DNA of 64,000 nucleotides from Schmidtea nova (Eukaryota): NCBI GenBank assembly GCA_044892505.1, contig CM097883.1, positions 42,346,001 through 42,410,000 on the forward strand, written 5' to 3'. The notes under the pieces are model-generated. The model was not told where the DNA came from. It did not search any database and saw only the letters and a list, made by a program, of their open reading frames with translations. Of the stretch, positions 15,689-51,639 are shown in pieces (the stretch's first letter is position 1; every line of letters starts with the position of its first letter). The translations under genes were made by a program, and so were the position numbers.

Positions 15689-16939
15689 ATGGCTTCTTTC
15701 ATCATTCAAATGATTACCAAGTCATTTTTTGATCTGACCAAAAAACCCAAAGAGAGCACGATTGAACTTGAAGGAGCGATTGACAGGCTCAATTGGTCTG
15801 TGTCTTGTAAGCTTTTCCTTTTATCAATTCTTATCATAGCTGCCAAGGTTTATTGGAGCTCTCCCATCGAATGTTACACCCCAATCGCTACATCTGGCAA
15901 AGACTTCGATAAATTCGCAAAGGAATACGGATGGATCAACTCGAAATACAGCAAGATACCGAATAAAGATGGAGCGGCCAATTCACAATCATTGGACAAT
16001 TTCTCGTTAGATTATTACATTTGGACGCCTTTTTATTTATCACTGGCGGCAATTTTACTGTATTTACCGCATGCCGTTTTATCATATGTCACAAGGAAGG
16101 CGGTTGACATAGACTTACAGAACAGTTTGATCAAAGCGCGATCTCTGGCAAGGAAAGTTGGGGCGGTTTCGGAGGAATCAATCTCAGAAATCGCAGACAA
16201 AATGAAAATTATGTTCACATCAGAGAGAAGAATGAAAAGAATCGGCTGGCTGTCATCGGTTAAAAGGATGGTTCATAGATCCTGCTGTCCACTTCTCGTT
16301 CCTTCAAGAAGAAACGGAACAATTCTATCATGGACTTATCTGGTAGTCGCCACCCTGTATTTGCTTGTCAGTTGCACCATTGTAATTGGAATGGCGAGAT
16401 TTGTCGGTTATGCCAATGCCGAGGAGTATTTTGTGTCTATCAGGAACTTCATTGTTGACCGAGAATATGCGAATGCGATTCCGCGATTTCCAAGAATGGC
16501 TTATGCAGTGATGCCGATTGCCGATCAAGCGATGATCAATCATTATGAATTGGAATGCGTTCTACCGATCAACATGCTATGGGGAAATATGTTTATCCTT
16601 TTATCTATTTGGATGATGTTTGTAGCACTGGTGAATGCGCTGAATGTTCTATCGATGCTCCTCAATACGAGTTCGAGGCGAGAATCATTCGTCAAGGCTT
16701 CACTGAATCTTCGAGCTCACGGAGAGTTGAATGATTTGAACCTTGTTAGAAGATTCAGTGAGGAGTTTTTGAAACATGATGGGATTATGATTCTACAATC
16801 CATGGTGTCGAATTGCGGCCAGTATACGACTAGTTATATTGTGTTGGCGCTATGGGACAAATTCTTAGACGAAGAGAGACATGCGCCTCGCTTAGTAATC
16901 TCTGACGTTCCTAGCACCTCTCATAAACGGTTGCAATGA
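15689..16939 (+). CDS. inx: Innexin (gap-junction/hemichannel protein), 416 aa, intronless, copy 1
   Basis: DRLN before TM1, PIEC, YYIW (YYQW motif) followed by LPH, FPR, CVLPIN, four hydrophobic segments, DG..+L near the C-terminus. Confidence 0.93.
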   Translation: MASFIIQMITKSFFDLTKKPKESTIELEGAIDRLNWSVSCKLFLLSILIIAAKVYWSSPIECYTPIATSGKDFDKFAKEYGWINSKYSKIPNKDGAANSQSLDNFSLDYYIWTPFYLSLAAILLYLPHAVLSYVTRKAVDIDLQNSLIKARSLARKVGAVSEESISEIADKMKIMFTSERRMKRIGWLSSVKRMVHRSCCPLLVPSRRNGTILSWTYLVVATLYLLVSCTIVIGMARFVGYANAEEYFVSIRNFIVDREYANAIPRFPRMAYAVMPIADQAMINHYELECVLPINMLWGNMFILLSIWMMFVALVNALNVLSMLLNTSSRRESFVKASLNLRAHGELNDLNLVRRFSEEFLKHDGIMILQSMVSNCGQYTTSYIVLALWDKFLDEERHAPRLVISDVPSTSHKRLQ

Positions 16940-24933: not shown

Positions 24934-25960
24934 CCAATAAGAAAAAATAACTCTTCTACAAATTCTGAAATTTTTCTAAATAAATGTTTGGTTACCACAA
25001 ATTCTTCTGAAATCAAAATAAAAATTTTTTACGACAAAATTCTCACAAATTCTGAAAATTTTTTCCACAAATTCTGAGAAGTTCCATTTTGATGGCTGTA
25101 TATATACCATCCATTTTTCGCTATCTTCACTAGTGCAATAAAACAAATTGTTCTAGAATTTTCTCTTAATTTTTTCTAAATTAATTCTAATGATTTTCCG
25201 AAAATTAATTCCATATTTTTGTATAATAATTTTTTATAGACCATAAATAATTTATTTTAATTCAAAATTTTTATGTTTGAATCGAAATTTTCTCAATTTG
25301 ATTTAATTTATGATATTTCGATCAATATTAATTCTTTCTATTGTTAAATGTGAAATTTTGTGATGAATTCACAATTTTCTTCTAAAATTGTGTTAATTTT
25401 TCTGCACTGAAGGTTTATGACAAAATTCTGTTCTTTATGGGCATTTTCAATGGGTTTTCAGCCTATTCTAACTTTCAAACGTTCTGCTTTTAATTTTTCT
25501 CGAGATTTCAGTGAAAAGACTTGCAAATTTACAGCTAGCGCGTACTCTACCGGTTGATGTGTTTTGATTCCACTTCACCTTTTGGTGTTTTTCACTTAAT
25601 TGTTGGATTTTTAATGGATGCTAGGGTTAAAAATGGAATCTTGCGCGTTCTCTACCTATGGGATTATCGCTGTATTAAAACAAATTGCAGTTTTTGCCCA
25701 ACAATTGTTTTTATTTTTAATAAAATATTTGCAAATGAAATCTTATTTCATAAAATATGTTTAAATTTATTCAGACAAGGAAGTAAATTAAATTCTTTTT
25801 ATTTTTTATTAGCGCAAAATATTGCTCTGCCGTCAAAGTAGAAAAGGAACTTTGAGAGCTGTTCGTTTCTTTTCTGATAAGTATCATTGGATTGATTCAT
25901 TATTCCTTTAGTTCCTGACCTTGAATTTTTATCTCATCATTAGATCAGTGAGCTTCCTGA

Positions 25961-27186
25961 TGTTGGATGATCGAGGGAAGCCCATCCAAGCATTTACCCT
26001 GAACAAATATTACAGGACAGGGCCTAATCGATACATGGTTAATATATATGCAGAAACCCAGTCCGAAAATAATGCAGACTCCATCTTCAATCGCCTCAAA
26101 TAATCACCCTTCTTCAATCAAAGCTAACAGAGCCTAAAATAATCACCCTTCTTCAATCAAAGCTAACAGAGCCTAAAATAATCACCCTTCTTCAATCAAA
26201 GCCAACAAAGCCTCAAATAATCACTATATGACTATGTTTATGTGATCACAACTTTATTATCTAATATACTTTTAAATTTTGTATATGAGTGTCATTATTC
26301 TGTATTTGAAGTGTATATAATTATTCTGTACTTGAATTTCATAATTATTCCGTATATTATCATTTGAATTTTATGTATATTTGTGTAAAAATCTATAAGG
26401 TAATATATCTGTATATGACAGTGCATGAGATGTGAAGTAATAATATATTAAAAAGGGCAAATTGTAGATAATAAATTTTTAATAAAAAATAATAATTTTA
26501 GATAATAATATATTAAAAAGGGCAAATTGTAGATAATAAATTTTAGATATTTATTTAATAAAAAAATAATAATTTTAGATAACGACAAATTGTAAAACGA
26601 CAAGATGTAAATTCTAGATATTATTCTAGATATTGAGCCAGATAAAATAAACAAAATCCGGTTAAAAAGACCGATTGAAATATAAATATTTTAAATAAAT
26701 ATAATTATATGATGGTTAAAAAGACCGATTGAAATATAAATATTTTAATATAATGATTGTCGAACAAGATAAAAATTTACTATATAAGCTGATGGAAAAA
26801 TCAGAAAAAAGGCCCAAAAAATTTCATAGCTTTAAAATCTAATTTTAAACTAAAGAATTAAAATCTGCGCAATATCGAGTTTTCAAGGAAATCTTGAAAA
26901 ACTTATTAAAACCCGGATCAGAAACATTGGATCCACAAATAAAATATAGCACGCACTACATAGCAGTCACCCAATAGGTTCAATTACAAGAATTGATTTG
27001 ACACGACTTTTTCTTTTTTAAAAAAATTGTGTAATAAAGAATTTGAGTTATTAATTGTAAACGGAATAAAAAGTAATTTTATTGTATTAATAAAATTTTG
27101 AAACAAACTTTGTTTTTGATATTTATATACGAATCACCCCAATAACGAGTTGAGATTGCAAATAGCAAATATTTGGAACCTCAACA
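25961..27186 (+). repeat. 5' LTR
   Basis: Matches 38727-39952 (one mismatch seen by eye, 27120 T vs 39886 C); internal 38-bp x3 repeat at ~26098-26222; AATAAA at ~27064. Confidence 0.97.
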
Positions 27187-27188
27187 TT

Positions 27189-27206
27189 TGGTGCCGCGAA
27201 CCGGGA
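27189..27206 (+). promoter_or_regulatory. Primer-binding site TGGTGCCGCGAACCGGGA, probably tRNA-Phe
   Basis: 2 nt after the LTR; has the shape TGG-T-acceptor stem-T arm of metazoan tRNA-Phe (15/18 match to TGGTGCCGAAACCCGGGA). Confidence 0.7.
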
Positions 27207-27435: not shown

Positions 27436-30400
27436 ATGAGTAATAATAGTACAGGCAGCAATAATAGTGGAAGTAACTGCAATACAGACAACATCAACAG
27501 TAATCATAATTTTATAAAAACACTACCAATAGAATCATATAAAGGAGACCCTGAAAAGTTCGACGACTTTTTTGTCGAAATCGCACAATATGCAGAGGCT
27601 TGCGGATGGAAAACAAATGAATTAAAACAACGAATTCCATTATATTTAAAAGGATATGCATTACAAGCATACAATAATTTAGCATGTAAAGGCATTAATT
27701 ATCAAGAGTTAGTTACAAACCTTAGAAAAGAAATAGTAATAGATAGAGACTTACAAAAAATAAATGTTCAAAAATTTAGAAGTAGATACCAAGGAGCAAG
27801 AGAATCAGTAGGTGAATATATATACACGATAACAGAATTAGCAAAAAAGGCATTTGGTGCAGAAGATCACACTAGTAGGTTAATCGAGGATCAGTTTTGG
27901 AACGGAATCCAAAAATATTTATACAAAGCATTAATTACGATTGAATATGAAGACTTAAATGAATTAGTACAAAAAGCAAAACGCATCGAAGCAATACAAA
28001 GAGATCGATTTAGACCAGAGATAGACGCTGTAGAAATTGAAAAGCAACTTGAGGTAAAACCTGAGTTGAAAAATAAAGATGATAGTATCCCTTGGGAAGA
28101 AATGAAACAATTATATTTGAATTTTGTTAATAATAGAAGAAAATTTAGTCCTAATAGAAGCCAATCACCTGAAAACAAGGGAAGGTTTAACAGTTCAGGA
28201 AATAAAAATTTTGATAATAGAAATAGAGATAATTTTAAAGATAACTATAAAGGGAATAATAATAGAGATAGTTTTAGAGACAATCGTTCTGGTTATAACA
28301 GTTACAGTGGATATAATAGAAATAATAGAGATAGTCGCTTCGAATATAATAGAAGAGATAATAGATATAGAGATAATTCGAGAAATAGACAAGATAGCCC
28401 AGTGAGGCGAAATAATAATGAGGGTAGGGATAAAGTGAATTTTAATGGACAAATAAAATGTTACAATTGCCAAAAGTATGGTCACCTAGCAAAGGTATGT
28501 AATAAACCACGAGCAGATTCACCGATAAGAGTAAGATTTAAAAATGAGCCTGAGATAAAGCAGGTAAATAGCGCTGAGCTTGAATCAGCAAATAACGAAA
28601 TAAACATATTAAGAGAAGAATTAAAAGAATTTAAAACGCAATATGGAAGACTTATTGAGAGAAAGCTTGAAATGTCTATAAATGAATTTAGTACTTTTAC
28701 AAATGAAGTAGATATCGATAATGATGAGTTAAAAGAAATTAGAGAAGCAGATGAAATATTTCTCACAGAAGAAAATAAACAAAAAGAATTGATAGAAGAA
28801 TTTAAAGAGATATTGTATAAACAACCATTTGATGATAACGAAACACTGAGAATAATCAATAAAATACAAGTCAATGGGATTGAATTAGACAAGCTTAGAA
28901 ATTTGATACCAATGATGGTAAAGAGGCAAAATATAACGAAAATATTTGAATTAGAAATAGAAATAAAAGAGATGTTAAAATGTTATGGAGAATATATAAG
29001 AAAAAATGAAAGACTGCATGAAACACTAAAGGTAACGATTGAATCAAACGATAACTACTTTTCCAGAAACAAACAAAGGGTACATCCTTGCACTAAAGTG
29101 AGCAAATTAAAACGAATGGTAAGAGCCAAATGGCCAGGAACCATAGGAGAGAAAGATGTAATAAAATTATATTTTAACGGAATAGAATTATTGAGTGACG
29201 AGTATTTAATCGATTATGGGATAAACCCAGTAAGTGATAATATTGTGGTAGCCACAATAGAAAAACGAATGGTCGATGAGATAGTGACGCCAGTACCGTC
29301 GGTTGAATTGAGTATAAATGAAGAAAACGATTTTGATAGATTATTTAGGCTATGGGATAAATCACCTAGCGAAACAAAGAAATCAGCAAGGGATGAAGAA
29401 ATTATATTTAAACCTATAGATAAAAAATATAGTAACTTACAAGAAACAATAGAAAGAATAGCTGACGAAGCAAAAACAAAAGATGCAGAAACATCAAAAC
29501 GAGGTAGAGGAAGACCTCGAAAATCAGAAATAATAGAAAAATCGGACAATAGAAAAACAGCGGAACGATTAAAAGAAATCGCAAACAAACAAAGACATGA
29601 AACACTAGAATACCAAGATGACAACAACGACATAAATAAAATAAAAGAAATAATAAAAGTCATGAATATTAAGCTATTTCCAGAAACAAGACCAACGGTA
29701 CTCATAGAAAACATAACAGAAAAAATGAAACTAATTAAAAAAGATACCAAAAGACTAGCCACAGAAGAAGCAGATGAAAAAACAGTATTAAAGATCCTGT
29801 TTAATACAGGGATAGATAAAGATAGAATAATAACGGCCATGGCATACTTGGCTGCAAGATACAAAAAAATTATAAAGGAAAATCTAAAAGGACAATTAGA
29901 CAACGTGGTAACGATGATGTATAAAAAATTGAAGGTAGAAGCAATACCCTGGATAAAAATGAAAGGAGGATGGAAAATATTATATGATGAGGATACGACA
30001 AACAAAGAAAGTGATACAGATAAAGTAATAAAACAATTAATAGAGAAAACAACAATAAAACCAAAAACAGAAAACAAATCGATAACCTCCACAGTAATAG
30101 TAATAATAACATTATTATTAGATTTAATTAAGGGTAGCAATGCAATAATAGCATATGATTGTCAAAACCCAAAATGGGGACAAAAATATTCATTGTTGGA
30201 TGTCGAAAATTGCCCAGAAGCAAATCCAACTAAATTAATCATGTCAGAGCCTCAAATGTTTCATGTTTATCAAGAATCAGATTTTATTCATACGGAAGCT
30301 AAAGAGTGCATCATAAAGTATCAGGAGGAAGCATATATATGCCATGCTGGGGCAAGAACAGTTTTAAAACCCACATGGACACCAGAAGCAGTAATATTAT

Positions 30401-30840
30401 CACCAATGGAGTGTGAGGAGGCATTTAAAACAAAGAAAGCTAAATATAGCGGTCACAAAGGAATCGAGCTAGAAGCAAGAATAGGAGCAAAGATGAGACA
30501 GGACGTAAATATTGTAGGATGGACATCAAAAGGGGGTTATTGTGAAGGAGGAGAGTATACCGTATGGGGTGAAAAACTCAGTAATGTTGTAGTAAGAAGG
30601 CACTACATGGTAGAACTAAGAAAATTCAAGGCATCATTTGACAGCAGCTCAAAGAAAATGATGATATACAAATTTTGTACATTAGAAGAATCATATTGCG
30701 ATACAGGAGAATCAATGCTAATATATAAAATAGATAAATACGATTGCCAATTAACAAAATTAAAATCATTAAAATTTAGAGAGATCAAAGGGAAACAGTT
30801 CACAGATGTAGACTCAAAAAGAGTGAGAGATCAAAAATGA
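27436..30840 (+). CDS. Polyprotein part 1 (1134 aa): Gag capsid, CCHC knuckle, ubiquitin-like domain, AT-hook, signal peptide, N-terminal half of fusion glycoprotein
   Basis: Retrotransposon Gag motifs (PLYLKGYA, RYQGARESVGEY), CYNCQKYGHLAKVC (28459-28500), RGRGRPRK, hydrophobic VIVIITLLLDLIKGSNA followed by IIAYDC...YSLLDVENC. Confidence 0.9.
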   Translation: MSNNSTGSNNSGSNCNTDNINSNHNFIKTLPIESYKGDPEKFDDFFVEIAQYAEACGWKTNELKQRIPLYLKGYALQAYNNLACKGINYQELVTNLRKEIVIDRDLQKINVQKFRSRYQGARESVGEYIYTITELAKKAFGAEDHTSRLIEDQFWNGIQKYLYKALITIEYEDLNELVQKAKRIEAIQRDRFRPEIDAVEIEKQLEVKPELKNKDDSIPWEEMKQLYLNFVNNRRKFSPNRSQSPENKGRFNSSGNKNFDNRNRDNFKDNYKGNNNRDSFRDNRSGYNSYSGYNRNNRDSRFEYNRRDNRYRDNSRNRQDSPVRRNNNEGRDKVNFNGQIKCYNCQKYGHLAKVCNKPRADSPIRVRFKNEPEIKQVNSAELESANNEINILREELKEFKTQYGRLIERKLEMSINEFSTFTNEVDIDNDELKEIREADEIFLTEENKQKELIEEFKEILYKQPFDDNETLRIINKIQVNGIELDKLRNLIPMMVKRQNITKIFELEIEIKEMLKCYGEYIRKNERLHETLKVTIESNDNYFSRNKQRVHPCTKVSKLKRMVRAKWPGTIGEKDVIKLYFNGIELLSDEYLIDYGINPVSDNIVVATIEKRMVDEIVTPVPSVELSINEENDFDRLFRLWDKSPSETKKSARDEEIIFKPIDKKYSNLQETIERIADEAKTKDAETSKRGRGRPRKSEIIEKSDNRKTAERLKEIANKQRHETLEYQDDNNDINKIKEIIKVMNIKLFPETRPTVLIENITEKMKLIKKDTKRLATEEADEKTVLKILFNTGIDKDRIITAMAYLAARYKKIIKENLKGQLDNVVTMMYKKLKVEAIPWIKMKGGWKILYDEDTTNKESDTDKVIKQLIEKTTIKPKTENKSITSTVIVIITLLLDLIKGSNAIIAYDCQNPKWGQKYSLLDVENCPEANPTKLIMSEPQMFHVYQESDFIHTEAKECIIKYQEEAYICHAGARTVLKPTWTPEAVILSPMECEEAFKTKKAKYSGHKGIELEARIGAKMRQDVNIVGWTSKGGYCEGGEYTVWGEKLSNVVVRRHYMVELRKFKASFDSSSKKMMIYKFCTLEESYCDTGESMLIYKIDKYDCQLTKLKSLKFREIKGKQFTDVDSKRVRDQK

Positions 30841-30882
30841 AAAACAACAATTGTACAAGAAAAAGATACACCAACAATATAT

Positions 30883-33800
30883 ATGTCAGAATCTGAAAAC
30901 GAAGCAATGAGGTTCGTTAGAAAAAGGAAAAGTGTAAAATGTGGTAAGGAAATAATACAAACTAATTATGAAGGGATATACATAAGTAGAGAAGAAGTCA
31001 AAGATGCAAAACAAAAAGTAAATAAATTCGACGTCAAACTCGCATCATATTTCAACAATAAAATAGATTTTTTCTATCATAATCAACTATTGCAATTAGA
31101 TAAAGTATATCAATCAACAATCATGAGCGATTGCAAACTCAACAGAGAAATATTAAGGACAAAAATGGCAGTCGCGGTAACAAACCCAGATTTGATGGCA
31201 CCAATAATCTTCTCAGAAGAAGGAACATTTGCCAGGATAGTAGGAGAAGTGATACAGACATTTCAATGCAAACCTGTTAGTGTATCATTGGCAACAAACA
31301 ATCAGTGCACAAATGAGTTACCAGTAATATACAAAGGAGAAAGGGTATACCTTCAACCAATTACTAGAATACTAACAGAAAAAACATATGTACCAAGAAA
31401 AATAGAAAAATGCACTAATTTATTAGATCCATTATACAAAATAAATGACGAAATGTGGATATCTATGTCAGATAGGAAAGAGGCGATGAAACCACTCAAA
31501 TTAGAACTCATAGAGCTTGAAAAAAGATTGGAGTTTAAAGAAATCAACGATATGGATAGCAATGGCATATATACGAGAGAAGCTATAGAAAGTGCAAGAA
31601 AACACATGTTATTCCCAAACGAAAAAGAAAGAATACTGTCAATAATGGTAAACAAAGTTATCGAAGGAAGTTACGGAGGAAATTACAATTTTGACGTGTT
31701 GTTATCAAAAGAATATTTCAAAAAAGTAGCATATAAAGTATTATATAGTATATGGGGATATTTTGCAGTCCTTGGAAACATGTTCTCTACAATTTTGGGA
31801 ATTTACTATACGGTTGCTTTACTAAAAATGGTTTGTTCTTCTTTAGTATCACTACGACAGCTGAAACAAGTATTCGGAAATTCATATAAATTACTAGCAT
31901 GTTTATTCCCGTTTGTAGCCAAATACCTGATTACGGCAAAACATGATAAAGAAATACGTTTAATAAAAATCCAAAGGAATGAAGAAAGGCAAATATTGAT
32001 AGATGATGAAAACAATGAGGAAATAGTTAAAACGCATATATCACATGAAGGAAATGCACCACAACAAGGACTATACAAAAACCAAAGAGAACAATTAAAA
32101 GAGTTACAAGAAAATATAGAGATTAAAATTCCTAGAGAAAGTAAGAATTGTTACTGTGAACCCAAAAAAATATATGGTTGTTATAGCTTGGAAGTCGAAA
32201 TGATGGAGCAATTAGAGACAGCAAACGAAGCAAGGCCAAGACTTAAAATAATTATAAACAATATAATCATAAATGCACTAGTAGATACTGGAGCAGCAAC
32301 GTCCCTGATTAGGGAAGATCAACTTACAGATGGTCAAAAGAGAAATATTATGAAAACAATGGATAAAGTAGTAACACTATCAGCACACTACATTCCACTA
32401 AAAGGAGATATTGAATTAGTAGTTGAAACATCAGAACAAGTAATACACCACATATTTAAAGTAGTACAAGAATGCAATAGCATATGTATACTAGGGATCG
32501 ATATACTCAACAAGCTGAATAACTGCATCATAGACTTAACGGATAACACGATTAAAAGAAAAGCTATCAAACATAAGTCCAAGTTCACGGAAGTTGTTGC
32601 ATTAGAAGCATTCGAATTAGAATATGAGTGTGATCATATAATCCCCATAAAAGTTAACGTCAAAAGTGAGGACACTTTTATTTTCGAGCCAGAAACGGCA
32701 ATTACACAAAATATAATGTTAACTAATGAATGCGTAATTCCAAAAAAGGGAATAATCCCATTAAGAATAGCGAATTATGAAAAAAGTAATATAAAAATAC
32801 ACAAAGGCACAAAATTGGGAAAACTATTCAAAGGCAAATTTGAGAAAACGTATGAAGTCAGCGAGACAAGTGTGATAAATGATAACGGCAAAAGAGTGGT
32901 CGAACCTAGTAAGACAAATAGTATAAAATCATACGACAAAGTGAAAATCAATAATAAATACCTAACAATAACACAACAAGCACAATTACAGACACTAATA
33001 GATGAATACAGCGATGTTTTTGCAAAACATGAATTTGATTTAGGAGATACTGACATAATCAAACATGTAATAGATACGGGCAATGCAAGACCAATAAAAC
33101 AAAGACCATATAGCGTACCATATAAACTAAGAGAAGAGATAAAGCGACAAATTAAAGAATTAAAAGACGCAGGTGTAATAAAACAAAGTTTTTCACAGTG
33201 GGCATCACCCATTGTACCCGTCAAAAAGAAAGACGGAGAAATAAGAATGTGCATTGACTATCGTAAATTAAATGATGTAACAGTAAAAGATTCATATCCA
33301 TTCCCAAAAGCACAAGAGCAATATGATAAACTTAGGGATGCTAAGTATTTTTCAGTCATTGATGCGAATAAGGGGTATATGCAAATTCAAATGGAAGAAG
33401 GGGATGCAGAGAAAACAGCATTTGTTATTGAGGATGGTTTATATGAGTACACACGATTACCCTTCGGATTAACTAATGCGCCAGCCACATTTCAACGTCT
33501 AATGAACACAATATTAGTAAATGTACAACACTGCGCAGTTTACATGGATGACATATTAATATCATCAATGACATTCGAGGAACATCTAAAAGATATAACA
33601 AACGTACTTGAGAGACTAAGAAAAGCAAGGATAAAAATTAAACCAACCAAATGTAAATGGGCAGAGTCTTCGGCACTATTTTTAGGGCATATAGTCACAG
33701 TAGAAGGGATAAAACCAAATCCAGAAAATATAGAAGTTGTAAAGAAATTCCCAATACCAAAAACAGTACAACAAGTACAAGGGTTTTTAGGTTTAACAGG

Positions 33801-36480
33801 ATACTATCGTAAATTCATACAAGATTATGCAAAGATAGCAACACCTATAATAGAACTAACAAAGGGAATTAAAACAAAAGGAGAATGCAAAGACGTGTTA
33901 ATAGTACAAGAAATTAACAATAAAGTTAACAAGATACAAAAGAAATGGACAAAAGAACATCAAGAAGCATTCGACAAACTAAAAGAAAGATTGATAACAG
34001 CATCAGTGTTAAGATACCCAAATTTCGAAAAACAATTTATAGTAATGACGGATGCCAGAGGGAAAGCCGTAGGAGCAGTATTGGGCCAAGAAGAAGAGAA
34101 AGGGAAAGATTACGTAATAGCATATGCCAGTAAAACATTAAAAGGAGCACAGCTGAGGTATTCAACAATAGAAAAAGAATGTTACGCAATAGTATTTGCC
34201 CTAAAACAATTCAAACCATACATCTACGGAACTGAAGTGATAATAAGAACAGACCATAAACCATTAGAAGGCTTATGGAAACATAAAGATACATCAAGTA
34301 GATTACTTAAATGGGCAATGAAAATACAAGACATGCACCTAAAAATTATATATAAACCAGGTAGAATAAATAAAAACGCAGATGCACTATCAAGAATACC
34401 AGAATTAGGAGCACTTGAAATATTTGCACTAGTAGCAGAAAAGCCAATAGATATATATGAGGAACAGATGAAAGACCCAGAGATCAATAAAATAAGGAAT
34501 GAAATCAGAAAAGAAAACAATTCAAAATATCAAATATCAAAGAAATTAGTAGTAATAGAAGATTTCAACGGTAAGCAATTAATAGTAGTACCTCAGAAAT
34601 TAAGACAAATACTCCTACTACAATATCACGATGGAGCATTAGGAGGTCACTTATCATCTAGAAAGACAGCAAGTAGATTATTACAAAAATATTACTGGGA
34701 AGAATTAAAGAAAGATGTTAAGAGATGGTGTAACGCGTGTACAATATGTGCAACAAGAAAAAATACAGGTACAAAAACAAAAGCGCCGTTACACCCCATT
34801 CCAGCAACAACATCACCAATGGAACTATGTGCAATGGATTTTCTATGTAAATTACCTACTACAATTAATGGGAATAAACATATACTAGTATTTAGTGATT
34901 ATTTTACTAGATGGGCAGAAGCATTTCCAACAAAAGACGAAACAGCAGAAACAGTTGCTAAATTGCTTATAGAAAAAATTATTTTCAAGATAGGCACACC
35001 CAAAAGATTATTAACAGATAAAGGAACAAATTTTACTAGTGAATTAATAAAACGAGTAGCTAATATTTTTAACATGCAAAAGATCAACACAACAGCGTAT
35101 CACCCTCAAACTGATGGACTAGTAGAAAGATTTAATGGGACATTACTAAGCAGACTAGCTGTTTTTGTAGGAAAAAATCAAAATGATTGGGACGAATACA
35201 TAAGTCAATGCACATACATTCATAATATCACTCCAAACGAAACAACAGGGTATTCGCCGTATTATTTAATGTTTTTAAGAGAACCAGCAACACCAATAGA
35301 TACAATATTTGAACCTCGAGTATCACAATATTTAGATGCACCAGATTATGTCACACTAATGCAGGAAAAACTGCAAGAAGTGTATAAAGTAGCCAATCTA
35401 AAAGTCAAATATAGACAAGAACAATACAAAGCCGACTACGACAAAAATAGTAAACCACACAACTTTAAAGTAGGCGATAAGGTTAGACTTATGTCACCAC
35501 AAGTAGGAAAGGGAAAGACAACAAAATTAGCAAGACCATATAAAGGTCCATATGAAGTAGTAAAAGTAATAAATGAGAATTTACATTTACAAAAGCATAA
35601 AAACGAGGATCCAATAGTAGTACATGTCAACAGATGCAAGTTGGCGGAAGCCGAGGTCACGATAGATAAACCTCACAAGTATAATCTAAGATCTCATAAC
35701 AAACTAATAATATCGGCTATCTTCTTAACAATCATAACAATTGTTGGCTCAACCAAAACAATAGAATTCGACAGAGTATTAATAAAAATATCAACAAACG
35801 AAGTTAGAGCATTTATCATAAATAGAGGAGTAATTGATTTATACATGCAAACAACGAATGGGAAAAACCCAAAGATGATAAAAGGAAAGGACGACAGAAC
35901 AACCAACGAAATCGAAAGAGGAAACTATATTAATTTCACAAAACTAACACCTAATACAATATATAGAATCTGCATACAGAGAAACACAGATACAACAACA
36001 TGGAGATGCAAAAAGATAAAAACAGAACAATTACCCAAGGATATAATAAAAAATCAAAACATAACACCCGATAGAATAAAAAGCACAACAACGAAATCAA
36101 ATAATAGACTAAATACCACACTACATACAAACGAAATACCAACAAGCACTGGAATAGCCAAACTCCAAAAACAATACAATGCCAAAAAACAAAAACAAGA
36201 ACCTATCAAAATAAGGCAAGGAAGACCAATAGTGATACATAACTTAGAGGAACTACAAGCATTTCGTAAAAAAGATAAAAATCCACATTGGCCTTTTTAT
36301 GTCATCACAACATCAATAATAGCATTAGCAGTTTTAGCTTTAATAACTAGCGTACAAATTTATAAAAAGTACAAATGGAAAAGGCAGCGGTATCGGAGCC
36401 AACTGGTCAGAAATGTACCAGGGCATTTCCATTTGGATAAATATATACCAGGTGAATATTCGAGGTCCACATTGGTATAA
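30883..36480 (+). CDS. Polyprotein part 2 (1865 aa, same frame as part 1): glycoprotein C-terminal half with TMs, PR, RT, RNase H, IN, FN3-like/TM module
   Basis: GEVIQTFQC..V.V...C.NELPV...LQPITRIL glycoprotein motifs; DTG 32284; YMDD 33541; TDA/EKEC/RTDHKPL; HHCC, MDF, TD.GTNF, ERFN, GPY; C-terminal signal peptide, FN3-like domain and TM. Confidence 0.93.
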   Translation: MSESENEAMRFVRKRKSVKCGKEIIQTNYEGIYISREEVKDAKQKVNKFDVKLASYFNNKIDFFYHNQLLQLDKVYQSTIMSDCKLNREILRTKMAVAVTNPDLMAPIIFSEEGTFARIVGEVIQTFQCKPVSVSLATNNQCTNELPVIYKGERVYLQPITRILTEKTYVPRKIEKCTNLLDPLYKINDEMWISMSDRKEAMKPLKLELIELEKRLEFKEINDMDSNGIYTREAIESARKHMLFPNEKERILSIMVNKVIEGSYGGNYNFDVLLSKEYFKKVAYKVLYSIWGYFAVLGNMFSTILGIYYTVALLKMVCSSLVSLRQLKQVFGNSYKLLACLFPFVAKYLITAKHDKEIRLIKIQRNEERQILIDDENNEEIVKTHISHEGNAPQQGLYKNQREQLKELQENIEIKIPRESKNCYCEPKKIYGCYSLEVEMMEQLETANEARPRLKIIINNIIINALVDTGAATSLIREDQLTDGQKRNIMKTMDKVVTLSAHYIPLKGDIELVVETSEQVIHHIFKVVQECNSICILGIDILNKLNNCIIDLTDNTIKRKAIKHKSKFTEVVALEAFELEYECDHIIPIKVNVKSEDTFIFEPETAITQNIMLTNECVIPKKGIIPLRIANYEKSNIKIHKGTKLGKLFKGKFEKTYEVSETSVINDNGKRVVEPSKTNSIKSYDKVKINNKYLTITQQAQLQTLIDEYSDVFAKHEFDLGDTDIIKHVIDTGNARPIKQRPYSVPYKLREEIKRQIKELKDAGVIKQSFSQWASPIVPVKKKDGEIRMCIDYRKLNDVTVKDSYPFPKAQEQYDKLRDAKYFSVIDANKGYMQIQMEEGDAEKTAFVIEDGLYEYTRLPFGLTNAPATFQRLMNTILVNVQHCAVYMDDILISSMTFEEHLKDITNVLERLRKARIKIKPTKCKWAESSALFLGHIVTVEGIKPNPENIEVVKKFPIPKTVQQVQGFLGLTGYYRKFIQDYAKIATPIIELTKGIKTKGECKDVLIVQEINNKVNKIQKKWTKEHQEAFDKLKERLITASVLRYPNFEKQFIVMTDARGKAVGAVLGQEEEKGKDYVIAYASKTLKGAQLRYSTIEKECYAIVFALKQFKPYIYGTEVIIRTDHKPLEGLWKHKDTSSRLLKWAMKIQDMHLKIIYKPGRINKNADALSRIPELGALEIFALVAEKPIDIYEEQMKDPEINKIRNEIRKENNSKYQISKKLVVIEDFNGKQLIVVPQKLRQILLLQYHDGALGGHLSSRKTASRLLQKYYWEELKKDVKRWCNACTICATRKNTGTKTKAPLHPIPATTSPMELCAMDFLCKLPTTINGNKHILVFSDYFTRWAEAFPTKDETAETVAKLLIEKIIFKIGTPKRLLTDKGTNFTSELIKRVANIFNMQKINTTAYHPQTDGLVERFNGTLLSRLAVFVGKNQNDWDEYISQCTYIHNITPNETTGYSPYYLMFLREPATPIDTIFEPRVSQYLDAPDYVTLMQEKLQEVYKVANLKVKYRQEQYKADYDKNSKPHNFKVGDKVRLMSPQVGKGKTTKLARPYKGPYEVVKVINENLHLQKHKNEDPIVVHVNRCKLAEAEVTIDKPHKYNLRSHNKLIISAIFLTIITIVGSTKTIEFDRVLIKISTNEVRAFIINRGVIDLYMQTTNGKNPKMIKGKDDRTTNEIERGNYINFTKLTPNTIYRICIQRNTDTTTWRCKKIKTEQLPKDIIKNQNITPDRIKSTTTKSNNRLNTTLHTNEIPTSTGIAKLQKQYNAKKQKQEPIKIRQGRPIVIHNLEELQAFRKKDKNPHWPFYVITTSIIALAVLALITSVQIYKKYKWKRQRYRSQLVRNVPGHFHLDKYIPGEYSRSTLV

Positions 36481-36769
36481 GTTAAATTGGTCAATAATAT
36501 ATATTAAAATCACATATATCTGTATCTATAAAATAGCGTATAAGGTTAAACCTGAAATACGCTCTCAACATAAAAATTTACATTTTATTTTTAGAAAAAC
36601 AAGTCACCCATTTGACAAACAACCCAATAAAGCCAGTTTTACATCAAATCCTCAGCACAATCAAAACAATAAAACCAACTCCCAATCAAATCGTTCCAAT
36701 TTTCAATCCAATCACAAATCAAGTCGTAAAATCATATCTCGATCTCATTATCAATCTATATTCTTAGTG

Positions 36770-36905
36770 TTTTATCGTTTACTAACTTATCAATCAATAT
36801 CCCGATTCTTAGTGTTTTATTGTTTGTTAACTTATCAATCAATATCCCGATTCTTAGTGTTCTATTGTTTACTAACTTATCAATCAATATCCCGATTCTT
36901 GTGTC
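36770..36905. repeat. 42-bp tandem repeat x~3.3 between pol and ORF3
   Basis: ttcttagtgttttatcgtttactaacttatcaatcaatatcccga repeated; ends just before ATG 36917. Confidence 0.9.
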
Positions 36906-36916
36906 TTCAATTAACA

Positions 36917-38869
36917 ATGCAATCAGAGCCAAATTATTCTCGATCTATGAACTATGTGGCTATGATCAACAAACACCCTCTAAACTTTTACAAAACCCTA
37001 CAAAACAAAATATGTACCGATGGAAATCCAATCACAATCAGAAGCTTCCCAAACCAAGTATGCATCCCAAATGATATGAAAGTGGAAATTGAAGAAAGAG
37101 AACTACACATTATCAAATTTAATGAAGCTCGACGAACAAAACTAAAAGACCTAATCGGCACATTTGAAAAACATCTTAATGTCGACAAAGCGGTAATCGA
37201 AGGAAAAAAGGTACCACATAGAATCCTATTCCACATGACAAAAACCGAGGTATCAATTTGCCAACATAAAGTACCAATAATCACAACAAGTAATTGTTCA
37301 ATCATCATCAAAACAATTACAAACAACAGAAGTATGCCAGACGATTTTAATCACCTCATAATCCAAATGAACAACTTACCGTGTGTCATAGGAATCGAGA
37401 TACTCTATATCCCTCTGATATCAAATCCATTCCAATCAATGCCGCCAATCCCTTCAAAACCTTGGTACGATCAAAGCTGGATAAATGAAAAAATCTCTTT
37501 CACACACAATGAATTATCCACAGAAGAGAGACACCAACTAATTATGTTCATGGATGCAAAATTTGCAATTGATAAAAATGACAACAAGCGACCAGTAGAA
37601 GTATGTATAAGAAAGTACAACGGTGAAATTATATACAACAAAAAGATAACCCCAAGAACGAAGATAAAAAACTTCTGCACAGAAAAAACAATGATTAATA
37701 AAGAAAGTATCGTCGGAAATGAAGATGAGTACCAGGCGCTATTGGATATCAGAAAGCTGTTGTGGGGAAAAATAATCATAGGATTTGACATGATAGATAA
37801 ATTAAAAATGCTAACATTTGGTCTAGACAACATTGCAGGAATGAGAGAAATGGCCGGAGATAAATTTATGTGCTCATTCGTGAAAAACGTGGATCCACTC
37901 AAAATTAAGCTATCCAATTTAGCTTACCAAGTGATTAAATACCATAAGAGATGGTACAAAGATAAGAGACTGAATGAAGCATTAGTAGAAAGTGAGCCAT
38001 TTTCTGCCAGAAAGACAACAACAATATTAAAGGTAATATATGGAATAGTAGAAGACAAATGGGAACCTATAATAAAATGGAATTCAGCAGCTTCAACATC
38101 GTTACAAAGTGATACACCAATAACAGACGATATCGAAATGAAAGGAGACCTATACCAGATGCAAAACAGAAAATCATGTATGGAAGAGTTGAAGGAAAGC
38201 GAAGAAGAAAGTATAATAATGGATGAAAATTCAGATATGGAAGAAACAATACATGAAGATAGTGATGATGACCTAATGATTACAAAAGAAGAAGGACCAC
38301 CAGAAAATCAAATAATGATTAAAAACGAACCGCAACTAATACAAAAATACAAAGAAAGAGAAGACATATGCGATTTAGATTCGGACGAAGAGTATTTTTC
38401 AGTTGAGGAAAACGACGAAGAAGACTTCACAAAAGAAATGGAGAGTAAAATAAAAGCAGAAGACGAATTAGGACCAGAACCAGGCATTGAAATGGAAATA
38501 GAAGAGGAGGAAGAACCTAGCTTCATTATAGGTGCCGACCAAAAAGAGATAACGGAAAAACAATTATGTACCCATTTCGGAAGACGAATTGAGGAAGATG
38601 ATACCCTAAATCTTGCAATCAAGAAAGGATTCAAGAGAACAGTAATGAAATTAAAGGATAAAGAAATTGAAATGGTCCTGAGCGAAAAAGGTAATGAGGA
38701 CATTACTTTGACGGCCCTGGGAGGAATGTTGGATGATCGAGGGAAGCCCATCCAAGCATTTACCCTGAACAAATATTACAGGACAGGGCCTAATCGATAC
38801 ATGGTTAATATATATGCAGAAACCCAGTCCGAAAATAATGCAGACTCCATCTTCAATCGCCTCAAATAA
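36917..38869 (+). CDS. ORF3 (~650 aa from ATG 36917; open from 36413): REX4/ISG20-like DEDDh exonuclease fold with altered catalytic motifs and an acidic tail
   Basis: IMFMDAKF...GEIIYNKKITPRTKIKNFCTEKTMI...LLWGKIIIGFDM follows the REX4 pattern VA+DCE...G.V+YD..V.P...V.D.RT..SGI...L.G+ILVGH; the last 47 codons lie in the 3' LTR. Confidence 0.75.
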   Translation: MQSEPNYSRSMNYVAMINKHPLNFYKTLQNKICTDGNPITIRSFPNQVCIPNDMKVEIEERELHIIKFNEARRTKLKDLIGTFEKHLNVDKAVIEGKKVPHRILFHMTKTEVSICQHKVPIITTSNCSIIIKTITNNRSMPDDFNHLIIQMNNLPCVIGIEILYIPLISNPFQSMPPIPSKPWYDQSWINEKISFTHNELSTEERHQLIMFMDAKFAIDKNDNKRPVEVCIRKYNGEIIYNKKITPRTKIKNFCTEKTMINKESIVGNEDEYQALLDIRKLLWGKIIIGFDMIDKLKMLTFGLDNIAGMREMAGDKFMCSFVKNVDPLKIKLSNLAYQVIKYHKRWYKDKRLNEALVESEPFSARKTTTILKVIYGIVEDKWEPIIKWNSAASTSLQSDTPITDDIEMKGDLYQMQNRKSCMEELKESEEESIIMDENSDMEETIHEDSDDDLMITKEEGPPENQIMIKNEPQLIQKYKEREDICDLDSDEEYFSVEENDEEDFTKEMESKIKAEDELGPEPGIEMEIEEEEEPSFIIGADQKEITEKQLCTHFGRRIEEDDTLNLAIKKGFKRTVMKLKDKEIEMVLSEKGNEDITLTALGGMLDDRGKPIQAFTLNKYYRTGPNRYMVNIYAETQSENNADSIFNRLK

Positions 38870-39952
38870 TCACCCTTCTTCAATCAAAGCTAACAGAGCC
38901 TAAAATAATCACCCTTCTTCAATCAAAGCTAACAGAGCCTAAAATAATCACCCTTCTTCAATCAAAGCCAACAAAGCCTCAAATAATCACTATATGACTA
39001 TGTTTATGTGATCACAACTTTATTATCTAATATACTTTTAAATTTTGTATATGAGTGTCATTATTCTGTATTTGAAGTGTATATAATTATTCTGTACTTG
39101 AATTTCATAATTATTCCGTATATTATCATTTGAATTTTATGTATATTTGTGTAAAAATCTATAAGGTAATATATCTGTATATGACAGTGCATGAGATGTG
39201 AAGTAATAATATATTAAAAAGGGCAAATTGTAGATAATAAATTTTTAATAAAAAATAATAATTTTAGATAATAATATATTAAAAAGGGCAAATTGTAGAT
39301 AATAAATTTTAGATATTTATTTAATAAAAAAATAATAATTTTAGATAACGACAAATTGTAAAACGACAAGATGTAAATTCTAGATATTATTCTAGATATT
39401 GAGCCAGATAAAATAAACAAAATCCGGTTAAAAAGACCGATTGAAATATAAATATTTTAAATAAATATAATTATATGATGGTTAAAAAGACCGATTGAAA
39501 TATAAATATTTTAATATAATGATTGTCGAACAAGATAAAAATTTACTATATAAGCTGATGGAAAAATCAGAAAAAAGGCCCAAAAAATTTCATAGCTTTA
39601 AAATCTAATTTTAAACTAAAGAATTAAAATCTGCGCAATATCGAGTTTTCAAGGAAATCTTGAAAAACTTATTAAAACCCGGATCAGAAACATTGGATCC
39701 ACAAATAAAATATAGCACGCACTACATAGCAGTCACCCAATAGGTTCAATTACAAGAATTGATTTGACACGACTTTTTCTTTTTTAAAAAAATTGTGTAA
39801 TAAAGAATTTGAGTTATTAATTGTAAACGGAATAAAAAGTAATTTTATTGTATTAATAAAATTTTGAAACAAACTTTGTTTTTGACATTTATATACGAAT
39901 CACCCCAATAACGAGTTGAGATTGCAAATAGCAAATATTTGGAACCTCAACA
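38727..39952 (+). repeat. 3' LTR
   Basis: See 5' LTR. Confidence 0.97.
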
Positions 39953-40939
39953 CTGAGGAACCTGCAGTTTAAAACTGACATTGCAACTCTTACGTTTTGA
40001 CAACCTGAAATAGAGTTGTATGTTGGTGGGCTACATGACAGAAGAAATAGGTCCATTTTATCTTTCTTTTTTGGATTGGTTTTTGAAGGAATATTTCTGT
40101 CATGGATTTCCAAAAAATATATTGCTCAAAAAACTTTGAAATATGATATTGTGATTAAAGCACAATAGTTAAACCTAAATATTATTAGAAATTTCTTTTT
40201 TTACCATTTTATAATAAGAATTTATAACAATTAAATTTGAACTTGTTTCCATCATCTAATACATGAAAACAAAGTTGTACTCTGTTAATAATATCTTTTC
40301 TGTGATGGTTTAAGAGACTGAAACTTGATGTTTATAATACTTGGCTAGTGATAATACCTGGTCGATTATTATATTCTTACTCTGACTGAATACACAACTG
40401 AAATACACACTTGATAAAGGCTGTGCCGAAATATTGTGTACTTGTTTAAAAATAAACTTTTGATTTATAGGCTTATGTAAATTATTGATATTAATATTAA
40501 ACAAGGATCAAAGGTTAAACAAAAAGATAATTATGATTTAATTTTCTATCAAACATTACAAAGAAATTTACGAAGTTAAAATAAAATTTTATTTAAAACT
40601 CGATATTACGAATCACAATCTTCATCTATTTTTCTTAATCCGTGCGCATTCTTTATTATAGAAAGAGGAAGAGATAAAAAAAGGTTTTAAAATCAATTAT
40701 GATACACGTTTTAGTTTTCTGTAATTATTCACATGATTCTGACTGCAAAACACTAATGTAAATATGTGAATGTATTAAACACTGTTGACCATTTATAAAA
40801 ATGATTTTCATGAAGACTTTTAAACCTTGCAACTGTATCTCAATGAAAAAAATGGTTTGAGGATGACCCATTTATATGTTATCAATCAAATCATGCATTT
40901 TAAATTTTAGCAAAGGTTTTTCCGGATTTCATGTATTAT

Positions 40940-42190
40940 TCATTGCAACCGTTTATGAGAGGTGCTAGAAACGTCAGAGATTACTAAGCGAGGCGCATGT
41001 CTCTCTTCGTCTAAGAATTTGTCCCATAGCGCCAACTCAATATAACTAGTCGTATACTGGCCACAATTCGACACCATGGATTGTAGAATCATAATCCCAT
41101 CATGTTTCAAAAACTCCTCACTGAATCTTCTAACAAGGTTCAAATCATTCAACTCTCCGTGAGCTCGAAGATTCAGTGAAGCCTTGACGAATGATTCTCG
41201 CCTCGAACTCGTATTGAGGAGCATCGATAGAACATTCAGCGCATTCACCAGTGCTACAAACATCATCCAAATAGATAAAAGGATAAACATATTTCCCCAT
41301 AGCATGTTGATCGGTAGAACGCATTCCAATTCATAATGATTGATCATCGCTTGATCGGCAATCGGCATCACTGCATAAGCCATTTTTGGAAATCGCGGAA
41401 TCGCATTCGCATATTCTCGGTCAACAATGAAGTTCCTGATAGACACAAAATACTCCTCGGCATTGGCATAACCGACAAATCTCGCCATTCCAATTACAAT
41501 GGTACAACTGACAAGCAAATACAGGGTGGCGACTACCAGATAAGTCCATGATAGAATTGTTCCGTTTCTTCTTGAAGGAACGAGAAGTGGACAGCAGGAT
41601 CTATGAACCATCCTTTTAACCGATGACAGCCAGCCGATTCTTTTCATTCTTCTCTCTGATGTGAACATAATTTTCATTTTGTCTGCGATTTCTGAGATTG
41701 ATTCCTCCGAAACCGCCCCAACTTTCCTTGCCAGAGATCGCGCTTTGATCAAACTGTTCTGTAAGTCTATGTCAACCGCCTTCCTTGTGACATATGATAA
41801 AACGGCATGCGGTAAATACAGTAAAATTGCCGCCAGTGATAAATAAAAAGGCGTCCAAATGTAATAATCTAACGAGAAATTGTCCAATGATTGTGAATTG
41901 GCCGCTCCATCGTTATTCGGTATCTTGCTGTATTTCGAGTTGATCCATCCGTATTCCTTTGCGAATTTATCGAAGTCTTTGCCAGATGTAGCGATTGGGG
42001 TGTAACATTCGATGGGAGAGCTCCAATAAACCTTGGCAGCTATGATAAGAATTGATAAAAGGAAAAGCTTACAAGACACAGACCAATTGAGCCTGTCAAT
42101 CGCTCCTTCAAGTTCAATCGTGCTCTCTTTGGGTTTTTTGGTCAGATCAAAAAATGACTTGGTAATCATTTGAATGATGAAAGAAGCCAT
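40940..42190 (-). CDS. inx: Innexin, 416 aa, intronless, copy 2 (4 aa differences from copy 1)
   Basis: Inverted duplicate 40841-42440 of 15439-17036; differences PNK>PNN, FPR>FPK, YIV>YIE, DVP>DVS. Confidence 0.93.
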   Translation of the reverse strand: MASFIIQMITKSFFDLTKKPKESTIELEGAIDRLNWSVSCKLFLLSILIIAAKVYWSSPIECYTPIATSGKDFDKFAKEYGWINSKYSKIPNNDGAANSQSLDNFSLDYYIWTPFYLSLAAILLYLPHAVLSYVTRKAVDIDLQNSLIKARSLARKVGAVSEESISEIADKMKIMFTSERRMKRIGWLSSVKRMVHRSCCPLLVPSRRNGTILSWTYLVVATLYLLVSCTIVIGMARFVGYANAEEYFVSIRNFIVDREYANAIPRFPKMAYAVMPIADQAMINHYELECVLPINMLWGNMFILLSIWMMFVALVNALNVLSMLLNTSSRRESFVKASLNLRAHGELNDLNLVRRFSEEFLKHDGIMILQSMVSNCGQYTTSYIELALWDKFLDEERHAPRLVISDVSSTSHKRLQ

Positions 42191-43799
42191 TGAGCATGCC
42201 TATATATGAAATATTCTTGCTGAATGACGCAATATAATAATGAGGATAATTCTTGATAAATATTTACGGAATTTTGTAATTCCATGAAACTTGTTTCTGA
42301 GATTTTCTTAATTCATTTTCCGGCTTATAATCAAGTTTTCTTAAACATTTTTCATTCTTGACCCTTTTCTCGTTTTGGCGGTCCATTTTATATCTAGCAC
42401 TGTTAATAAATCATTTAATAGTTAACCCTCGATTACGGTCGCTTGGATGTTTTGAATCAGCGGTGCTTTAGTAATACCATATTTTTCATTTTATGTGTAT
42501 GTGAAATTTTTGTTGTTTTATTCAACTAATGTCTATCATAAATAATAAGACAAACACTGGTTTGAGGAATATTTATTAAATAACATAATTTTATACACAT
42601 AAAAAATATTTACCGTGACCAAATAATTAAAAAGATTTTATATAGTTTTTTTATATTATGTGTTCTTTGATTTATAACCCTAATTATAGTTACATGAGCT
42701 CAGTTATGTAATCTGTATGCTCAAAATTTGGCTTGCTGAGTCAAGTTCTTAATGTGAAGCTCTTCGTAAGTAAAGATTTTATGGGTTGATCTGACTGAAA
42801 AATCAGTCACTTTATATATTAATTTTTAAAGCACTTAATCTGCCAATAACTTGTTATTGTTCCACGCAAGTTTATTAAAAGTGATATTGTTTTCATAAAA
42901 GAATTGTTTTTAACCTTGGAATTGTGAATATAATTTTATTTTGTTGACCTTTGCAGATCCTAACTATAATTTATTTAAACAAAATGTAAAATTTTATTTT
43001 ATTATTTATTTTAGTTTTATTATTATTATTTATTTCTTCGAAATAAAATATTAAAGTAATTTCAAAAATATAAAATAAAATAGTAATCATTTTCTAAATA
43101 ATTTTAAAATAAAATTAATTAACAAAACTACTTTTTCAAAATCATCTAAAATATTTTTTAGTTTTCTAAATTTACAGTTTCACAAAATAAAATGCAATAC
43201 AAATTCGAATCATTAATAATTTGTTGAACAATTGCCTGCCTTCATCGTTATCATGTTTAGTCCATTTCTTTACGTTAACATTTACATTTACTTTGTACGT
43301 AATTGTCCCATATCTAACATGTTTAAAATAAGTATTAAAATTAGATATTAAATAAAAATTAGTTAAATGTTAAAGGTTCATTCATTAAAAGCAAAGAAAG
43401 TTTATGCTGTGTGTCCAACACCCTGTGACTTTAATCACGTTTTAAAGTACACGGCCGTATTGAAGCGTTTAAAGCAGAACTATTTTTTATCACTCTCATG
43501 GAATGGTCAATGCGAGATAATGAATAAAATTATATTCTTCATAGAATGTAATTTGAACAAAATGGATTGGGAAAATATTTTAAAAACGGCAATTTGTCCC
43601 GTTGAGCACTCCTCTGTTTATCAACAAGGTATATTTCATATAATTAAATTTTCAACTTCCAAAGAATAAAAATAATACGTTACGGTCTTAAGGATACTTT
43701 CAAAATAACAATCAAGAAATATTCGTTTTCTGATTTTATTTATTTAGTGCTTACAATTATAATGATGGGTATAATAATGGTTGTTTTCGAAATGCTTTA

Positions 43800-51122: not shown

Positions 51123-51639
51123 ACATCTTCATTTGAGTTTCGGTGGTTGTTTCTTCACTGTTGTTCTGGTATTTGGACCTGATTTCTTTGTTGGTACTTC
51201 TAAGGTTTTTTCAATATCCGAGCTAGGAGCATCAGGGATCGGCTTTACAATTGAAATTGCTTCTACTAAACACTTTTCACATACATTGATGTCGACTCCT
51301 TCTCTGATTGAAATGCATTTCTCAAGTTTATTATTGCATTTCATGCAGTTGATTTCCTCAATCAAAACGATTGGTTCGGGCTCACACTGTTTCTCAATCT
51401 GTTTTACTGTAACTATATCTGGAATAGTTTGTTCGTCATTATTTATTTTGTTTATAGTAAACTTAAGGTCAATGATTATCTTGGAAATTTGTTGGCCCAT
51501 CTCAGGAGTGCAATATTTATTGCTAGATTCATATAATCTGAAATGCTGGTTGCCATTTAAATATTTTCCAACATCCCTCAGCAATAAGTAAATAAATCTT
51601 TTAGCTTTGGCTTCATGTGTGTCATCAACAATTTTACGT

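Follow-up and report, generated by a model that had tools for sequence, protein, structure and literature searches.

A candidate second membrane protein with a predicted fibronectin type III fold behind the integrase of gB-type Ty3/gypsy elements in Schmidtea nova

The stretch of DNA analysed here (the window) comprises 64,000 nt of contig CM097883.1 (assembly GCA_044892505.1) of Schmidtea nova, and all coordinates are positions within it. The window contains a Ty3/gypsy retroelement of the GAG-ENV-POL kind with a glycoprotein B (gB)-type env between gag and pol, protease, reverse transcriptase (RT), RNase H and integrase (PR-RT-RH-IN), a GPY end, and long terminal repeats (LTRs). Behind the integrase we identified a membrane module that consists of an internal signal, an ectodomain predicted to fold as a fibronectin type III (FN3) domain, a Thr/Ser-rich stalk, a transmembrane (TM) anchor, and a cytoplasmic tail ending in a class I PDZ-binding motif. 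A second membrane protein of this type is apparently undescribed, in a kind of element that is itself known. The features of the element, including its open reading frames (ORFs), are as follows:

25961..27186, plus strand: 5' LTR (TG...CA), one mismatch against the 3' LTR; target-site copy CTGA just before it, at 25957-25960
27189..27206, plus strand: primer-binding-site-like stretch starting with TGG, from sequence
27436..30093, plus strand: Gag, with Pfam matches for zf-CCHC, AT_hook and Bcl-2
28453-28503, plus strand: CCHC knuckle in Gag (zf-CCHC E 4.6e-4, below cut-off)
29497-29526, plus strand: AT-hook-like motif in Gag (AT_hook E 0.41, below cut-off)
29779-29973, plus strand: Bcl-2-like stretch at the end of Gag (PF00452 Bcl-2 E 9.1e-5, below cut-off)
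30094..31848, plus strand: gB-like class III fusion glycoprotein with its TM, preceded by internal signal 1 (PF24664 E 3e-19 and 6e-70; hydropathy)
32227..35640, plus strand: protease, RT, RNase H, and an integrase whose C-terminal domain is GPY (Pfam)
35680..35694, plus strand: YNLRS motif at the integrase end (Y-x-L-R in relatives)
35701..35751, plus strand: internal signal 2 (hydropathy; predicted cleavage after VGS)
35752..36030, plus strand: predicted FN3-fold ectodomain (structure model and searches, family profiles)
36031..36180, plus strand: Thr/Ser-rich stalk with in-frame length variation (composition, copy comparison)
36181..36291, plus strand: juxtamembrane segment, with conserved PIVIHNLEELQAF at 36226-36264
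36292..36363, plus strand: TM anchor (hydropathy)
36364..36480, plus strand: 38-residue cytoplasmic tail and stop, with a basic stop-transfer cluster and the class I PDZ-binding motif STLV at 36466-36477
36347..38869, plus strand: ORF2, which ends inside the 3' LTR; it has an acidic region and, at about 37481-38062, a DEDD-exonuclease-like domain
38727..39952, plus strand: 3' LTR; target-site copy CTGA just behind it, at 39953-39956

The element spans 13,992 nt, and its LTRs (1,226 nt each) differ at one place, which together with the CTGA copies on both flanks marks the insertion as recent. Gag is followed by the Bcl-2-like stretch, a signal, the gB-like fusogen (PF24664), its TM, Pol, the module and, as a separate frame, ORF2; the polyprotein frame has about 3,060 amino acids (aa). 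The env of the window copy is interrupted by a single in-frame stop (30838-30840), and from 30841 to 36480 the frame runs unbroken from the glycoprotein through PR-RT-RH-IN (GPY at 35545) into the module. Frames are open for at least 3,040 aa in 31 of the 147 scored copies of this genome, so that the whole Gag-Env-Pol-module is encoded as one chain in the family.

A sequence-only reading of the window had proposed a membrane module fused behind the integrase, and each of its parts was located in the integrase frame by hydropathy, composition, or sequence. The second signal, KLIISAIFLTIITIVGS (35701-35751), has a 19-residue Kyte-Doolittle mean of 1.86, its cleavage site being judged by eye with the -3/-1 rule; no Met is conserved at its start, which makes separate initiation unlikely. 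The beta-rich domain that follows (35752-36030) contains FTKLTPNTIYRICI and gives way to a Thr-rich linker, with Ser/Thr shares of 30-40% in blocks across 35981-36120 and three N-glycosylation sequons. Hydropathy peaks again at 2.23 in the TM segment (36298-36354), ahead of KKYKWKRQR and the stop codon (36478-36480), a profile that fits a type I topology. The C-terminal STLV, whose conservation (see below) makes it the most informative feature of the module, was absent from the earlier reading.

The ectodomain is predicted with confidence to fold as an FN3 domain, a fold whose hallmarks are an L-x5-Y tyrosine-corner motif before strand F and a tryptophan in strand B. AlphaFold2 (AF2), run on eight natural copies, returned seven strands at a predicted local distance difference test (pLDDT) score of 71. 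Almost all matches listed by Foldseek were FN3 domains (best E 2e-3, with no row at 0.001 or better), as were nearly all 50 rows of VIA-align and both Atlas leads (0.87 and 0.81). The best VIA-align rows, an sDscam FN3 (Z 8.3, root-mean-square deviation 2.6, 76 residues) and IFNAR2 D2 (Z 8.2), are tied and barely exceed the tool's stated background of 7-8; they therefore name the fold and not the function. By sequence, profiles of 17 domains from many families (best E 7e-4) and of 24 domains (fibronectin E 1.4e-5, neogenin E 8.6e-5) matched neogenin, DCC, and fibronectin, and nearly all of the 60 rows listed for the 24-domain profile were FN3. L65 and Y71 are nearly invariant across the 24 domains, and a host-FN3 profile scored 8.4 bits on the L-x5-Y stretch of the window domain, a value reached by 3 of 500 shuffles. 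The FN3 fold that the sequence-only reading had suggested is thus what the AF2 model, Foldseek, VIA-align, and the family profile all point to.

Other searches of the ectodomain gave less. The Pfam fn3 model (PF00041) scored E 0.11 and 13.2 bits on the window domain, under its curated cut-off of 25 bits, and matched 5 of the 24 domains (best E 0.011). For family B, AF2 reached a pLDDT of 32, the host-FN3 profile fell short of significance (23 and 83 of 500 shuffles), and hhalign found no match between its ectodomains and those of family A, to which the window element belongs. Nothing clear came out of a PDB sequence search with A1 and A2, both narrow profiles, and with the ectodomain of a giant copy (see below). 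We also considered the module as an env fusogen of class I or III and rejected this: a fusogen ectodomain has hundreds of residues, a fusion peptide or fusion loops, and a helical or gB core, and that of the module has about 180 residues, comprises one FN3 domain and a stalk, and has no fusogen match in Pfam, Foldseek, or VIA-align.

Between subfamilies, the module is under purifying selection, the stalk excepted. It is free of stops in 132 of the 147 scored copies, which are 75-100% identical. Ratios of nonsynonymous to synonymous substitution (dN/dS) between the window's and the most distant subfamily, taken from the 29 uninterrupted copies among 40 loci (copies with stops or frameshifts being excluded), were 0.04 for the integrase, 0.32 for the signal, 0.30 for FN3 (Fisher p 0.002), 0.70 for the stalk (p 0.26), 0.30 for the TM (p 0.05), and 0.23 for the tail (p 0.004), with a pooled p of 5e-7 when the stalk is excluded. 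Insertions and deletions in the stalk preserve the frame. Over the larger distance from family A to families A2 and A3, FN3 identity falls to 38 and 33% while the tail keeps 71% in both and the integrase 84-86%; the Env ectodomain is 71% identical between A and A2. This pattern, in which the FN3 domain diverges fastest and the tail is kept, is what would be expected if the former were a binding domain facing the host and had a conserved inner partner.

Nine or more families of this genome repeat this layout behind the integrase: a signal, then between one and four FN3-like domains, a TM, and a tail. An integrase-end pattern had 848 matches in the genome and none in the control, and among the first 30 such loci a signal-like stretch followed in 27, the TM and tail were reached in 18, and 17 of these 18 ended in S/T-x-V/L/C. 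When 20 longer loci were read, env lay upstream in 13, including all six with a complete tail. A search with the fusogen retrieved further families with integrases about 50% identical, in which the signal-ectodomain-TM-tail frame was found in 12 of 14 loci and was broken in two. Two giant copies of the Burro type also carry env upstream (L169-L172) and behind the integrase encode a signal, four FN3-like repeats, a TM, and a VMVI end, followed by a MATH/TRAF ORF. Relatives were found outside this genome as well: seven metagenome contigs, probably from other organisms, have integrases 45-51% identical and yield six complete tails, and env is visible in the two that reach far enough (L166 and L167). 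As the sequence-only reading had anticipated, the module is therefore conserved in related elements alongside a gB-like glycoprotein wherever a copy is complete. A first metagenome scan and a viral-contig scan came back empty, and a protein search added two integrase ends (P0004 and P0005), of which P0005 extends through ankyrins and a signal to where a beta domain starts. In an integrase tree, groups A and C/D/F are supported and the deep forks lack resolution. An env-less multicopy gypsy family (L173-L210) showed env in 0 of 8 and a signal after GPY in 0 of 30 loci, a weak control in that it is one family only, with an integrase that precedes the RT.

Class I PDZ-binding motifs are C-terminal sequences of the form S/T-x-hydrophobic, as defined in the part of PMC4810129 available to us. 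They close the chain in 14 of 15 family representatives, including all six complete metagenome tails (TTLV twice, GTVV, STVV, ATFV, and GTMV), whereas among 205 frame ends of the window, taken as a control, 7 do so. Positions -2 and 0 are held and position -1 is free (STLV, STQV, STSV, ETEV, ETKV, ETFV, LTAL, LTDL, STVV), and the tails of distant families can be aligned only at the motif end. Further families end in LTAL, LTDL, LTEL, or LTVL in 6 of 12 loci and in LIAL or LMAL in two, the rest being broken; DSQL was also seen.

Several relatives carry additional domains around the module. One metagenome contig (L167:2891-3850) has, besides the module behind its integrase, another signal-FN3-TM module between two protease domains upstream of the RT. 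Extra protease-like domains lie between integrase and signal at L164:3618-7106, which also has ankyrins, and at L168:3529-5727, and accessory ORFs behind the module encode a TRAF zinc finger with MATH (L170:3689-5095) and a RING finger (L162:2055-3389). Within the window element, the Bcl-2-like stretch (29779-29973), 43-51% identical in families A2 and A3, directly precedes the Env signal and would be membrane-tethered, as cellular Bcl-2 proteins are. ORF2 (36347-38869) contains a degenerate DEDD-type exonuclease domain and has homologs in most families; its own frame has no Pfam match, its homolog in L167 (tblastn E 2e-20) matches RNase_T (PF00929, E 1.4e-5), and metagenome homologs match RNase_T too. 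Three 45-nt tandem repeats (36760-36900) separate the stop of the polyprotein from the main part of ORF2. The Y-x-L-R motif at the integrase end, present in 14 of 15 representatives, is a candidate chromatin tether, and the window's YNLRS resembles a chromatin- and nucleosome-binding peptide of foamy virus Gag (PMC6021111, in the part seen). Elsewhere in the window, intronless innexin frames flank the element in inverted orientation (15680-16939, plus strand, and 40940-42199, minus strand; 99.5% DNA identity), and a non-LTR element (46713-51128, minus strand) has a Ulp1-type protease domain ahead of its RT.

No relatives of the module were found in protein collections (0 of 1,550 candidates and 0 of 5,928), and the single match among 1.84 billion proteins, a Kelch protein, was discarded since it aligned to the TM stretch only. 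None of 43 host FN3 exons stood out on comparison: the best E was 0.011 for A1, and for A7 it was 5e-7 but spread across several genes (reversed control E 0.17). Among the 15 of 24 joints that were listed, from contigs of four runs of unknown kind, none led into the module. For the captured host adhesion domain envisaged by the sequence-only reading, these searches thus found no specific donor, and such a capture is plausible only as an ancient event. The literature searched describes no FN3 or PDZ-tailed protein behind an integrase, figures being outside its coverage and able to annotate such a module.

The gag-env-pol layout itself has been published, in the accessible portions of PMC6431247 and PMC13524379. 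Planarian Burro/GYPSM1 elements (PMC6431247, Burro section) share with the window element one polyprotein with Gag, a BCL2-like motif, an in-frame env (with mononegavirus-type matches), and PR-RT-RH-IN, and the FN3-TM module recurs in the giant Burro-type copies of the present genome, which have ankyrins after the integrase and a MATH/TRAF ORF. Burro/GYPSM1 elements differ in size, with more than 30 kb and a polyprotein near 5,000 aa as against 14 kb here, and the frames of the window element, unlike Burro, have no Pfam match to ankyrin, MATH/TRAF, BIR, or dUTPase, ankyrin and MATH being found in its relatives. Neither FN3 nor a second TM protein nor a PDZ motif is named in that Burro section ("fibronectin" occurs 0 times). 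The GAG-ENV-POL errantiviruses of HSV/gB type from Nematoda, Bryozoa, and Platyhelminthes (PMC13524379, in part) have, like the window element, a gB-type env between gag and pol, LTRs, and many near-identical copies, and its supplement includes nine flatworm GAG-ENV-POL elements of 12-18 kb. The available text of that source describes nothing behind the integrase and does not mention fibronectin, PDZ, Bcl-2, ankyrin, or exonuclease. Bdelloid LTR elements likewise have an additional small TM ORF3 or a DEDDy-exonuclease ORF3 behind pol, but as separate ORFs, with no mention of FN3 or PDZ and no gB-type env in the same element in the excerpts of PMC5408684. The Env of HTLV-1 (PMC4810129, in part) is a type I membrane protein that ends in S/T-x-hydrophobic, as the window module does; there the motif is on the fusogen itself, here it is on a separate FN3 protein, and no sequence relation exists between them. 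The HTLV-1 motif is of class I and binds DLG1, with a role in the virological synapse and in cell-to-cell fusion and spread (same source and extent).

We propose, at about an even chance, that the Gag-Env-Pol polyprotein ends in the module as a conserved second membrane protein, one with a cell-surface role in adhesion or attachment that would aid the gB-like fusogen in cell-to-cell transfer. Under the general rules of targeting to the endoplasmic reticulum (ER), the chain would thread the membrane four times, leaving Gag cytosolic, Env luminal between signal 1 and the first TM, PR-RT-IN cytosolic, the FN3-stalk luminal between signal 2 and the second TM, and the tail cytosolic. Signal peptidase would free the N-terminus of the FN3 protein, and the element's protease would release Pol from both membrane tethers. 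A PDZ motif generally requires a free C-terminus, and the Env tail continues into the protease, so that only the last protein of the chain could carry one. Its tail may bind a host PDZ scaffold of the Dlg/MAGI/Scribble type and thereby concentrate budding where cells touch; the FN3 domain on its stalk, which changes fast, would bind a partner on the target cell. The sequence-only reading had suggested a partner of the fusogen, which is likely in the sense of a shared pathway.

Two-component entry is known from herpesviruses (gB with gD, gH/gL, and gE/gI) and paramyxoviruses (F with HN/G). The window element resembles these, by analogy only, in combining a fusogen with a stalked, faster-changing beta-sandwich surface protein; it differs in that its module is FN3 rather than Ig-V or beta-propeller and is encoded behind the integrase in a single chain. 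We hypothesize, tentatively and at well below even probability, that a whole clade of endogenous retroviruses of invertebrates, from compact 14-kb to giant Burro types, uses two-component entry from a four-pass polyprotein, in which the gB-like fusogen acts with a dedicated FN3 attachment protein, the PDZ tail sets up a virological synapse where cells join, and family-specific FN3 arrays set the cells that are invaded (e.g. stem cells).

Several observations weigh against an attachment protein of this design. Env was not found within 6 kb in 7 of the 20 longer loci, all seven of which are decayed with truncated tails, and the families share ancestry, so that counts are not independent. The domains of alignments A4 and A7 were hand-picked around L-x5-Y, which biases the profiles towards FN3, a bias from which the AF2 model of A1 is free. 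The window's own domain has no RGD and lacks the strand-B tryptophan, which is present in families B and H. Family E has no L-x5-Y domains, retaining a signal, one beta domain, a weaker TM, and an ESRV end, and the VMVI of the giant copies is a class II-type end and not class I. In family H, all 10 loci have an 8-residue tail without a PDZ motif, and the family is nonetheless multicopy (22 copies at 96-100%, with 3,345-aa frames). Neither a canonical FN3 domain nor a class I motif is therefore indispensable.

The module might instead play no part in entry and act in the producing cell, as a decoy receptor or by sequestering PDZ proteins, thereby altering immune signalling, junctions, or survival. 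This would suit a clade full of host-interference cargo (Bcl-2-like, ankyrin, MATH/TRAF, RING, and exonuclease ORFs) and a module whose tail is its best conserved part; viral class I motifs are often used in this way, as in adenovirus (Ad) E4ORF1 (TLV) and Tax (TEV) in the excerpted PMC4810129. The cytokine-receptor FN3 of IFNAR2 (Z 8.2) is among the top fold matches, but adhesion FN3s tie with it within 1 Z unit, so the fold rows name no class. Moreover, the tail, at 23-94 residues, has no catalytic or signalling domain, and the other cargo varies by lineage whereas the module is present in every env-bearing lineage read. We consider host modulation unlikely, albeit with a real share of the probability, and the immune modulation raised by the sequence-only reading found no direct support. 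Somewhat more improbable is a cofactor of Env or an assembly anchor, which would bind the gB-like trimer as a chaperone or trigger, in the manner of gH/gL for herpes gB, or would mainly tether the Pol C-terminus to the budding membrane. Herpes gB does require partners, and the module is equimolar with Env from one frame and always beside the fusogen; however, a tight partner should match the pace of Env, and the FN3 domain retains 33-38% identity where Env retains 71%, with the number of FN3 domains ranging from zero to four. As to the anchor, the signal alone would tether Pol, and the one weak Pfam row that would suggest a gH link (Herpes_glycoH_C, E 0.06, in 1 of 24 domains) is at chance level.

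A fast, family-specific ectodomain on a conserved anchor would also fit lineage-specific exclusion, whereby the module would keep related elements from re-entering by occupying the entry receptor, by down-regulating it, or by marking producer cells, and receptor interference by retroviral Env is a known precedent. Yet many families live together in a single genome, with hundreds of copies (the 848 motif matches), and we regard such a superinfection block as distinctly improbable. Finally, the lack of any homolog in large protein collections, the sub-threshold Pfam scores, and the near-neutral stalk might suggest a non-functional read-through or a decayed passenger. A dN/dS of about 0.3 outside the stalk (pooled p 5e-7) and the persistence of both layout and C-terminal motif across lineages with integrases 45-51% identical speak against this, and leave it a negligible chance.

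LTR elements are, to our knowledge, thought to carry one surface protein; the module would be a second one, fixed across a deep clade. Little is stated to be known of the way in which Ty3/gypsy elements with an env pass between cells (PMC13524379, in the portion seen). An attachment role would suggest candidate host partners, a PDZ scaffold inside the cell and a receptor outside, and the module is short and thus suited to study in isolation. More generally, the predicted topology would give a retroelement a polyprotein threaded through the membrane much as in flaviviruses, with both Gag and Pol held at the membrane where budding occurs. If two-component entry holds across the clade, it would be a retroelement counterpart of herpesvirus or paramyxovirus entry.

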